Of a stretch of 64,000 nt of DNA, positions 8,544 to 47,409 are shown piece by piece. The stretch lies in assembly GCA_964016885.1 (NCBI GenBank), contig OZ024743.1:313658001-313722000 (forward strand), given 5' to 3'. The position numbers and the translations under genes are program-made. Origin of the DNA: Eledone cirrhosa. Lineage: Eukaryota. The notes below the pieces were generated by a model. It searched no databases. It had not been told where the DNA came from and worked only from the letters and a program-made list of their open reading frames with translations. Position 1 is the stretch's first letter. The number at the start of each line of letters is the position of its first letter.

Positions 8544-8697
8544 TTCATTATTTCTGAAGACGGCGTATATATGTGTTGGTATGTATATTTAATCTTGATA
8601 GTTTGTATAATTTTGTATAATTTTGTACATAGATCTGTTGAATATGCATGCCAATTCTAACACATATATATCCTAGAAACGATCGTTAAATAATGAA
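8544..8697 (+). ncRNA. Type I hammerhead ribozyme motif with long stem II
   Basis: ttcattattt-CTGAAGA...GAAAC-gatc-GTT-aaataatgaa: 10-bp stem I, palindromic stem III, stem II tatatatgtgttgg/ctaacacatatata with an imperfect base. Confidence 0.75.
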
Positions 8698-8890
8698 CTT
8701 TTTTTGTTTAATATAAGGAACTGTTTCATTGTTTATTCATTATTTGTTTAATATTTTATCTTGACTCTGTATACCGTTTATCTTTCACCGAAAGTGATTT
8801 TTCATTACATCTCTTCTTTCCATGATATCCGGAATACATTGAGTTCTTCATACGGATTGGACACTACCGTAAACTCTTGGTAGATTTATC

Positions 8891-8922
<32 letters not shown>

Positions 8923-8924
<2 letters not shown>

Positions 8925-9119
8925 AAAGAAGAGGAAGTTTCGTTTACATATAAAATATACTTTTTGTCACATCGCCAGTCTGAAGAGCAGATCAATAGTG
9001 GTGTCGGTTCCATATCTCATATGGGTTATCTTGAGCCAATCCTCTGCGAAACGCGCGTAATAGTTCGATACCCAATAAATATATTTTATATGTAAACGAA
9101 ACTTCCTCGTTGTTTTCAA

Positions 9120-9125
<6 letters not shown>
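8923..9125 (+). mobile_element. ~200-nt mini-element: 29-bp inverted repeat enclosing a hammerhead, between two (TA)n tracts
   Basis: gaggaagtttcgtttacatataaaatata (8931-8959) / tatattttatatgtaaacgaaacttcctc (9080-9108). Confidence 0.75.
8971..9070 (+). ncRNA. Type I hammerhead ribozyme motif
   Basis: CTGAAGA(8980-8986)-gcaga...tctgc-GAAAC-gcgc-GTA(9057-9059); canonical core, stem II gcaga/tctgc; proximal stem I weak, atcg/cgat distal. Confidence 0.8.
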
Positions 9126-9172
<47 letters not shown>

Positions 9173-9860
9173 TATTATTAAAGCTAAATATGAGTCTTGT
9201 AACTCTGGAGTTTCTCTTGTTTATCACAGGGTCATAAAATGAATATTAAAACTTTACTTCGGTATATTGCATACTCTTTTCTCTCAGCTGTCAATGGATA
9301 TATGTATATATATGTCAACTGGAATAAAGTGAAATAAATTATCTCGTATAGGAATCGAAGGCTCAACCATACTATTTTGACTCCAGCCACACATCTTCGC
9401 TGTAGATGTTTAGGGAATGATAAATCGTTTACTATCAAAGCTTGGATATTTTACTCTAGAGATGCTAGTGTGTTTTACATGATATTGCAAGTAAAATACC
9501 ATAGTCATTGGTGTTTCCTGCTACAATCCCAACGGAATTGAATAAACCTTTCATGGTTCCGGCTCTGATGAGGTAAATGGCAACATTATTGAAATAACTA
9601 TACAATATGCCTTAAAACAATTTATATCGTATTCCTCAATTACCGGGGTTAATGAATGGATATTGTGGACATTATGCCTTCTCTGTGAACATTGGCACTG
9701 TCAGCAATGTCTTCTATTGGGAATCAAAAAGATAGTGAGAATACATAAACACGCCTCCATACACACATATATTCCCTTTCTTTATCTCTCCCGCTCTCTC
9801 TTTCTCATATATATAATTTATATAATGAACCAAAACGTTGATTGTATCCTCTTTTAGGTG

Positions 9861-46397: not shown

Positions 46398-46855
46398 TAG
46401 ATTAAACGTTTCTTGCTTTCGCCCTAATCAAAGATCTGAAACTGACAAAAATTAATCTGTAGACGCAGAAATAAATATTTCAAAAACATTACGACCAAAT
46501 ATTGCCTTTAGAAAACAGGAAGATATGACGGTTGTATGTGAAGACGTTCTCTTGCGATGGGCAAAACGTATGCAAGGATAATTACGGCATTGTGTGGGGC
46601 GAGAAGAAGAAATTCTTGCTCTGAAAAAAACATGTTCTTATGAAAAAATCTGGATACTAATATTCATTTTAGTATAGCCAGATGATGTCCAACTGCCATA
46701 TATTGAACATGATGTTCTAGCAACCAGCCTACTTGCCGTAAGCAACTAATCACATTCTTTCTAACTTGACCCCTGCCACGTCACCCATTCTTAGCCATTT
46801 TTTAAATCTATTTCTGGCGCGATCGCTTTGGAAAATTAACTGTCCTATTGAGTTT

Positions 46856-46932
46856 GTCTCCTGATGAGTTCGATACTCGAGATTTATCCTTACTAGGATA
46901 TCTCAAAATACGAACGAAACCCTGGTAGGGAT
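46856..46932 (+). ncRNA. Type I hammerhead ribozyme motif
   Basis: gtctc-CTGATGA-gttcg...cgaac-GAAAC-cctg-GTA-gggat; inner helix gagat/atctc. Confidence 0.8.
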
Positions 46933-47409
46933 TTAATTACGGTATGTGCACATTTCTTTTAACTTTAAATTTATACCTAATTGTGTATGGTTGACGATAT
47001 ATTTGGTCAGTTTCTACATGCTGTTGAAATGTTGGGTAAATACTCTATTGTGGTCAACCGCGAAGAGGCTGCTTTCGGTTATTTATCAAATATTTCTTCA
47101 TAAGAGCCTTTATTCATATAGCCTGGTCTAATTGATTTTTATATGGTTAATTATGCTAATTGGTAGAGGAAATTCTATATATTTTATCTAATAATTCTAG
47201 GGACATGATTTATGATATATAAATATATATATATATACGGGGTAACAGATTATTGTTATAGGTAGTTCACTTAAGTGTAGTCCAGTTATGGTATTCCGAG
47301 TTGTGGATGATATCAACGCTTGGCTAAGTTTGACTCAACAAGGCGTTTCCATAGTGATGCCGTGAGTACGCGGTAATTTCTATGTTGTAAACACTTGGAG
47401 TAATGATAA

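Follow-up and report, generated by a model that had tools for sequence, protein, structure and literature searches.

At positions 8923-9125 of the 64,000-nt stretch of Eledone cirrhosa DNA analysed here (the window; coordinates count from its first letter), a hammerhead ribozyme motif lies between the arms of an inverted repeat. The question raised by this insert, which we call the window copy, is whether it moves as a small ribozyme element in its own right or is a fragment of something larger. The first-pass annotation had offered two readings, a minimal non-autonomous ribozyme retroelement mobilized by proteins of Penelope-like elements (PLEs) and a remnant of a fold-back pLTR.

Structure of the insert

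The insert is bordered by two (TA)n target tracts, 8894-8922 on the left and 9125-9169 on the right, as had been annotated. Its portrayal as sitting alone in (TA)n is right only in a loose sense, because the left tract is also the end of a neighboring pLTR-like repeat from another family. The first part of the insert, 8923-8959 on the minus strand, is an inverted copy of about 37 nt of the element's own 3' end, with the short end inward. It contains the perfect arm 8931-8959, which together with 9080-9108 on the plus strand makes up the longest perfect inverted repeat, of 29 bp, exactly as first described; the right arm is an ordinary part of the pLTR and occurs in copies with and without the inversion. 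The remainder, 8952-9125 (plus strand), is a forward, 5'-truncated pLTR of a Penelope-like family, which begins in a hotspot of 5' ends just before stem I of the hammerhead and terminates at the short 3' end of the family, without the tail of about 65 nt discussed below. The two parts meet at 8952-8959 in an A/T microhomology, AAAATAT, that the inverted arm has in common with the beginning of the forward copy; the forward match begins at 8952, and the inverted match extends beyond this position. No open reading frame of at least 150 amino acids overlaps the insert, in keeping with its presumed lack of coding capacity.

Several other features of the window deserve mention. The neighbor at 8546-8900 (plus strand), whose end lies in the left TA tract, is another pLTR-like repeat; it is younger and has 94% identity to copies in L005/L127. 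It has a type I hammerhead-like motif of its own, with stem I CATTATTT/AAATAATG, CTGAAGA at 8554, a long stem II, and GAAAC-GATC-GTT at 8676-8687. A third hammerhead core, from another family with relatives in L062 and L079, is found at 46849-46940 (plus strand; CTGATGA, 48-nt stem II, GAAAC-CCTG-GTA), and CTGATGA followed by GAAA at 9560-9605 (plus strand), which failed the stem II filter, is possibly a further decayed hammerhead. Long reverse transcriptase (RT) ORFs cluster on both strands between 29131 and 58037, several with AP endonuclease and zf-RVT domains, and belong to LINE-type elements. The RT ORFs elsewhere in the 64-kb window were rejected as unrelated, their Pfam domains being LINE-type.

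Copy number and sampling of the family

A search of the 3.0-Gb genome showed that the insert is multi-copy, with 2,451 first-look candidates, 40 of them scored. Three short exact patterns of the family gave 167, 147 and 154 matches genome-wide, and their reversed controls gave none. For contig C1, match lists of 32 and 34 entries have three sites in common, from which about 1,700 copies are extrapolated. This estimate is rough, as truncated and inverted copies violate its assumptions; by rough estimate, the family has 1,700-2,500 copies. The number of first-look candidates declines from 2,451 for the pLTR to 288 for the UTR, 62 for the endonuclease and 23 for the RT end, which is a gradient of 5' truncation. 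Age shows in the identity of copies to the column majority, which has a median of 90% and reaches 96% in the best copy; the window copy, at 87%, is an old repeat and probably dead.

For the analyses below, two sets were sampled by position from the exact-pattern matches: set A for the 5' core (90 of 167) and set C for the 3' arm (88 of 154). The sets share one locus, so that the census covers 177 loci.

The parent element

The suggested link to PLEs was borne out, as the same 3' end continues into a UTR and an endonuclease in longer copies. Many copies without the inverted repeat extend upstream into common UTR sequence, and a walk upstream from the pLTR crosses about 1 kb of low-complexity 3' UTR and then enters remnants of an endonuclease ORF; in L119 and L111, endonuclease remnant, UTR and pLTR follow one another on the same strand. 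Next to the UTR of the family (L351) and in front of its endonuclease (L348, L349) lie RT remnants with 46-60% identity to an intact 861-residue relative. There was no intact ORF of the family's own among 150 scored matches. L106, initially taken for the cognate RT-endonuclease, was dropped as evidence: its RT ends in a different endonuclease start. This chimeric PLE (L106:4388-6524) switches at the common CNC motif from another family, which supplies its RT and the start of the endonuclease, to the endonuclease of the family studied here.

The intact relative (L112:1514-4096, G000:C3) is a Hydra-like ORF of a sister family which has the same layout, and whose tail continues into this ORF in L112. 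Its endonuclease is 49% identical to the cognate one. In front of the ORF lie a truncated pLTR and, in inverted orientation, part of its own 3' UTR. Pfam searches with the PLE proteins, including this 861-residue ORF, gave no hit naming them, and a PDB sequence search found nothing relevant; the GIY-YIG match of the endonuclease in Pfam is weak (E = 0.097, below the cut-off). Atlas neighbors of the L112 ORF at 0.96-0.98 include GIY-YIG and RVT_1 clusters. The CxCX5C linker, the CxxC and CxH motifs, the lack of CCHH and the C-terminal position of the endonuclease were recognized by eye in the cognate remnants, in comparison with section 11 of PMC8557442; the L112 ORF has the same linker, CxxC and CxH, and likewise no CCHH. 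RWR (RWR-like) and DKT motifs are found in the sister-family ORFs L112 and L113, whereas the N-terminal marks of the Hydra clade are RWK and DKT; no retrieved cognate copy extends to this part of the protein. Because the endonuclease motifs, both cognate and in the intact ORF of the sister family, match the marks given in PMC8557442, the family likely belongs to the Hydra clade of PLEs, as judged from protein motifs.

Located 3' ends are followed by (TA)5 in 31/56 and 47/72 cases against a background of 6-8%, with some bias because the short end itself ends in TA. Hammerheads and TA targeting have been described in Hydra elements (Craig et al. 2021, PMC8557442), and supplement S1 of that paper includes a (TA)n-targeting Hydra family from a cephalopod.

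The hammerhead ribozyme

The type I hammerhead of the window copy occupies 8974-9065 (plus strand) and has the order CUGANGA ... GAAA ... UH. Its core is canonical, as annotated: CTGAAGA (CUGAAGA in RNA, 8980-8986) is followed by stem II, GCAGA 8987-8991/TCTGC 9043-9047 with a long insert, and then by GAAAC (9048-9052), a palindromic GCGC (9053-9056) and GTA (GUA, 9057-9059), from which the cut position is predicted after A9059. The label "canonical" does not extend to stem I (8974-8979/9060-9065). The prevailing stem I of the family is ACCAGT/ACAGGT (18 of 39 core-intact set-A copies), which itself has an A-A mismatch, and the window copy has GCCAGT/ATAGTT, with two further substitutions in the 3' strand (C9061T and G9064T). 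Because of these two substitutions, the ribozyme of the window copy is predicted to be likely inactive; damaged in stem I and lacking a tandem partner ribozyme, this copy would most likely be inert.

In the family at large, the core is intact in 39/86 (set A) and 19/38 (set C) copies that span the motif. The pLTR of the sister family can be aligned across the hammerhead, and in 22 copies from the two families stem II pairs in 98% and stem III in 100% of cells, compared to 29-44% in slid controls; these sequences are related, hence the percentages are not a probability. Pairing of stem I is less certain, at 72% of cells across the families. One pair in stem II is altered on both sides between the two families.

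RNA folding places the insert far from shuffled sequence (z = -7.55; none of 200 shuffles was equally stable), mostly because of the inverted repeat. The hammerhead is missing from the minimum-energy fold of the window copy; imposing it raises the energy by 9.9 kcal/mol when the motif is folded alone and by 8.3 kcal/mol in the whole insert, compared to 6.1 and 9.9 kcal/mol in family copies L004 and L214. A search of Rfam with the insert gave no hammerhead match at the gathering score, with only low-complexity chance matches at E-values up to 10, and the long stem II insert is the probable cause of the missing match.

Signs of cleavage in the genomic copies are ambiguous. The start lies at most 5 nt from the predicted cut site in 11 of 88 copies, compared to 10 in the 30 nt upstream, a slight excess that is confounded by microhomology and alignment edges. 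The inverted arms of L130, L239 and L243 stop at the predicted cut site, where 3 nt match the forward copy; this could indicate either a cleaved template or microhomology. Several sister-family copies at separate loci (L336-L347) have CCGTCGA in place of CUGANGA, a core predicted not to cleave; the recurrence of such copies fits mobilization without ribozyme activity.

Inverted arms

In at least 67 of the 177 sampled loci, the forward copy directly follows 29-361 nt of the element's own 3' end in inverted orientation; this is a lower bound, since very short inverted remnants, below the BLAST threshold, were seen by eye in other copies. The inner ends of these arms are distributed over all bins. 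A junction like that of the window copy occurs in 9 of the 177 loci, and only one of the nine also lacks the tail on both sides; in the other eight, an end is broken or a tail is present on one or both sides. The exact junction pattern has 8 matches genome-wide. The letters at the junction vary between copies, around the common AAAATAT. Inverted 3' pieces also precede endonuclease-bearing copies (L062, L067, L077, L080, L082 and L089).

A tree of the forward copy (168 columns, weak support) was built from 83 rows, namely 66 of the 90 set-A copies that span the pLTR, 11 of 13 further copies in the mini-form (L120 and L124 were left out) and the 6 mini-form copies of set A, the last two groups giving 17 mini-form rows. 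The mini-form requires 15 changes on this tree, compared to 15.8 with shuffled labels, and a single clade of mini-form copies is rejected (p-AU 0.0018); short and long copies are mixed together. Given the variable arms and junctions, the lack of a clade, and the inversions in front of endonuclease-bearing copies, we regard the inverted repeat as a product of insertion and not as a fixed part of the element. The shared boundaries expected of a mini-element were thus not found: the arms vary continuously from 29 to 361 nt, with only the nine similar junctions and no single clade.

Reciprocal ends and a model of insertion

Two 3' ends occur in the family, at a distance of about 65 nt; we call them the short end and the tail end. 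Of the 67 composites, 36 have the tail only on the inverted arm and 21 only on the forward arm; two are short on both arms, two have a tail on both, and six could not be scored. Exactly one arm carries the tail of about 65 nt in 57 of 61 scorable composites (Fisher p = 5e-12). These reciprocal tails suggest that two cDNAs were begun at two sites and then joined. Simple fold-back is disfavored, because in the 36 composites with the tail on the inverted arm neither arm can be copied from the other; and because the two arms overlap in sequence, either two RNA molecules or strand displacement would be needed. The window copy itself departs from the reciprocal rule, being one of the rare tail-less composites.

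Taking these observations together, we consider it very probable that the insert is a pLTR with its hammerhead, truncated at the 5' end and preceded by a short inverted copy of its own 3' end, from a Penelope-like retrotransposon that likely belongs to the Hydra clade; the inverted repeat was likely made in this one insertion. We infer the following course of events. The GIY-YIG endonuclease of the element would nick both strands of a (TA)n tract, and each nick would prime one cDNA, one of them at the short start site and the other at the tail start site some 65 nt further. In the case of the window copy, one cDNA would have been extended up to the common stopping place just before stem I, the second for about 37 nt, and the two would have been joined at the AAAATAT microhomology. 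The lack of tails in this copy may be due to the short site having been used twice, or to later loss of the tail between TA runs. Such a scheme has precedent in biochemical work on another PLE, whose protein cuts and extends both target strands and begins synthesis at two sites, one on each side of the tail (Frangieh et al. 2024, PMC11167929). The insert is likely one of many differently cut, dead insertion products, rather than a mini-element of its own.

Alternative explanations

The alternative that survives best concerns the template and is compatible with the two-cDNA explanation of the inverted repeat. Among set-A copies, 49/90 begin at -20..-1, just before stem I. In set C, which is anchored downstream, 32/42 copies that reach the 5' side of the hammerhead stop at -22..+10 relative to 8965, where the rate of stops further downstream would lead one to expect 21% (binomial p = 5e-14; this 33-nt interval was picked after viewing the data). 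The pile-up may represent the 5' end of an RNA (initiation would then be internal, on the upstream pLTR), or else a place at an A/T-rich hairpin where synthesis stalls or strands anneal. We consider a discrete short RNA template possible, because of this pile-up and because short copies outnumber endonuclease-bearing ones about 40:1 (2,451 vs 62 first-look candidates). It would be a pLTR RNA of about 245 nt, from just before stem I to the tail end, serving as the main template, with the window copy among its products; the RNA would arise either by internal RT initiation within the 5' pLTR of full transcripts or by independent transcription of solo pLTRs, and the inverted repeat would still be made at insertion. 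Inverted arms often stop at the same place (7/34 in set A), the sister family has the same pile-up by eye, and internal initiation has been shown for another PLE (PMC11167929, in the available text). Yet the stops are scattered over some 30 nt of an A/T-rich, self-complementary stretch, where RT stalling or microhomology would give the same result; 22/90 set-A copies extend more than 60 nt further upstream, and the mixing of short and long copies on the tree also speaks against such an RNA. We regard it as possible and lean against it. A spliced template was rejected as the cause of the pile-up, as copies that start near the AG before the core have no upstream exon in common.

The two ideas can be merged into a bolder one, which we put forward as doubtful: in each insertion both RT start sites would be used once, one per target strand, on two RNAs, and most templates would be the discrete hammerhead RNA of about 245 nt that starts just before stem I, mobilized in trans far more often than the coding element. 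If true, the genome records both a SINE-like existence of the pLTR and the pairing rule of a dimeric PLE enzyme.

That the inverted repeat was made by fold-back of a single cDNA, or by a later local template switch at the DNA level, is improbable. The window copy by itself would suit such an event, as both arms are tail-less and 29/29 identical, including variants that depart from the family majority, and fold-back may apply to this copy alone. It does not suit the 36/61 composites with the tail on the inverted arm only, in which the forward arm reaches further 5'. Of the annotation's fold-back pLTR remnant, the inverted pLTR remnant comes close to the data, and the pure single-cDNA fold-back fails for most composites.

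The notion of a minimal non-autonomous ribozyme element, retrozyme-like or MITE-like, with the 29-bp inverted repeat as part of the replicating unit, is very unlikely: the form of about 200 nt does recur (the 8 exact and 9 sampled junction matches above), its hairpin is very stable, and both arms have the same subfamily variant in 9/10 testable composites, but the varying junctions at a common microhomology, the scattered inner ends, the tails or broken ends at 8 of the 9 similar loci, the rejection of a single clade, and a 3' end continuous with a coding PLE largely refute it. We found none of the uniform size, fixed inverted repeats and common descent typical of MITEs. The head-to-tail tandem units, with a hammerhead in each, that characterize non-LTR retrozymes are likewise missing, as the search for head-to-tail arrays found none, and in the one case among 100 listed sites where two lie paired on the same strand, the flanking DNA is duplicated with them.

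Comparison with known elements

Inverted pLTR architecture is already published (PMC8557442, PMC4209133). In EN+ PLEs, an inverted 5'-truncated copy and a one-sided tail have been described (PMC8557442), and 5' truncation, the inverted 5' copy and the tail at one end are all present here. The origin of the inverted structures and tails is stated as open in the available portion of PMC8557442, and this family may be of use in that respect. A literature search, mostly without subscription journals, found no paper on this family and no count of reciprocal ends. The points of remaining interest are the reciprocal ends and the 5' ends piled up just before stem I; the 57/61 rule and the pile-up provide sharp predictions for an in vitro assay, for which the intact sister ORF of L112 is suitable. 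There is also a caution: hairpin-clamped hammerheads in such genomes can resemble mini-elements when viewed singly.

What defines a retrozyme is the head-to-tail repetition of units that each have a hammerhead (Cervera and de la Pena 2020, PMC7229834; Li et al., bioRxiv 10.64898/2026.07.22.740005). Like the non-LTR retrozymes of PMC7229834, the copies described here are short, non-coding, related to PLEs and equipped with a type I hammerhead; unlike those tandem elements, they are scattered as single or inverted copies, and their family is physically continuous with a coding PLE.

The PLE hammerheads in the accessible text of Cervera and de la Pena (2014, PMC4209133) likewise have a type I fold, a helix III of 1-2 bp and a palindromic loop. 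A short helix III with a palindromic loop is the type said there to need a dimer and to cleave weakly in vitro. Most of those motifs are single truncated copies, some forming opposite-strand pairs 100-700 bp apart. The family studied here has a small helix III, as opposed to the minimal form without helix III, and differs also in a stem II insert of about 50 nt and an A-A mismatch in stem I.

With the Hydra clade, as described in part of PMC8557442, the family shares the C-terminal GIY-YIG endonuclease, the CxCX5C linker, the hammerhead in the pLTR and (TA)n insertion. It differs in its tail of about 65 nt (30-40 bp in that paper), in its low-complexity 3' UTR of about 1 kb and in that it appears dead, the comparison having been made with the published description.

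Finally, Poseidon of Anolis (PMC11167929) belongs to a different clade and likewise has two RT start sites that bound a tail, cuts and extends both strands, and uses AT-rich targets; its hammerhead is dispensable for insertion in vitro. Reciprocal ends in genomic composites are not reported in the available text of that study. The continuation of the sister family's tail into the ORF in L112 is as described there.
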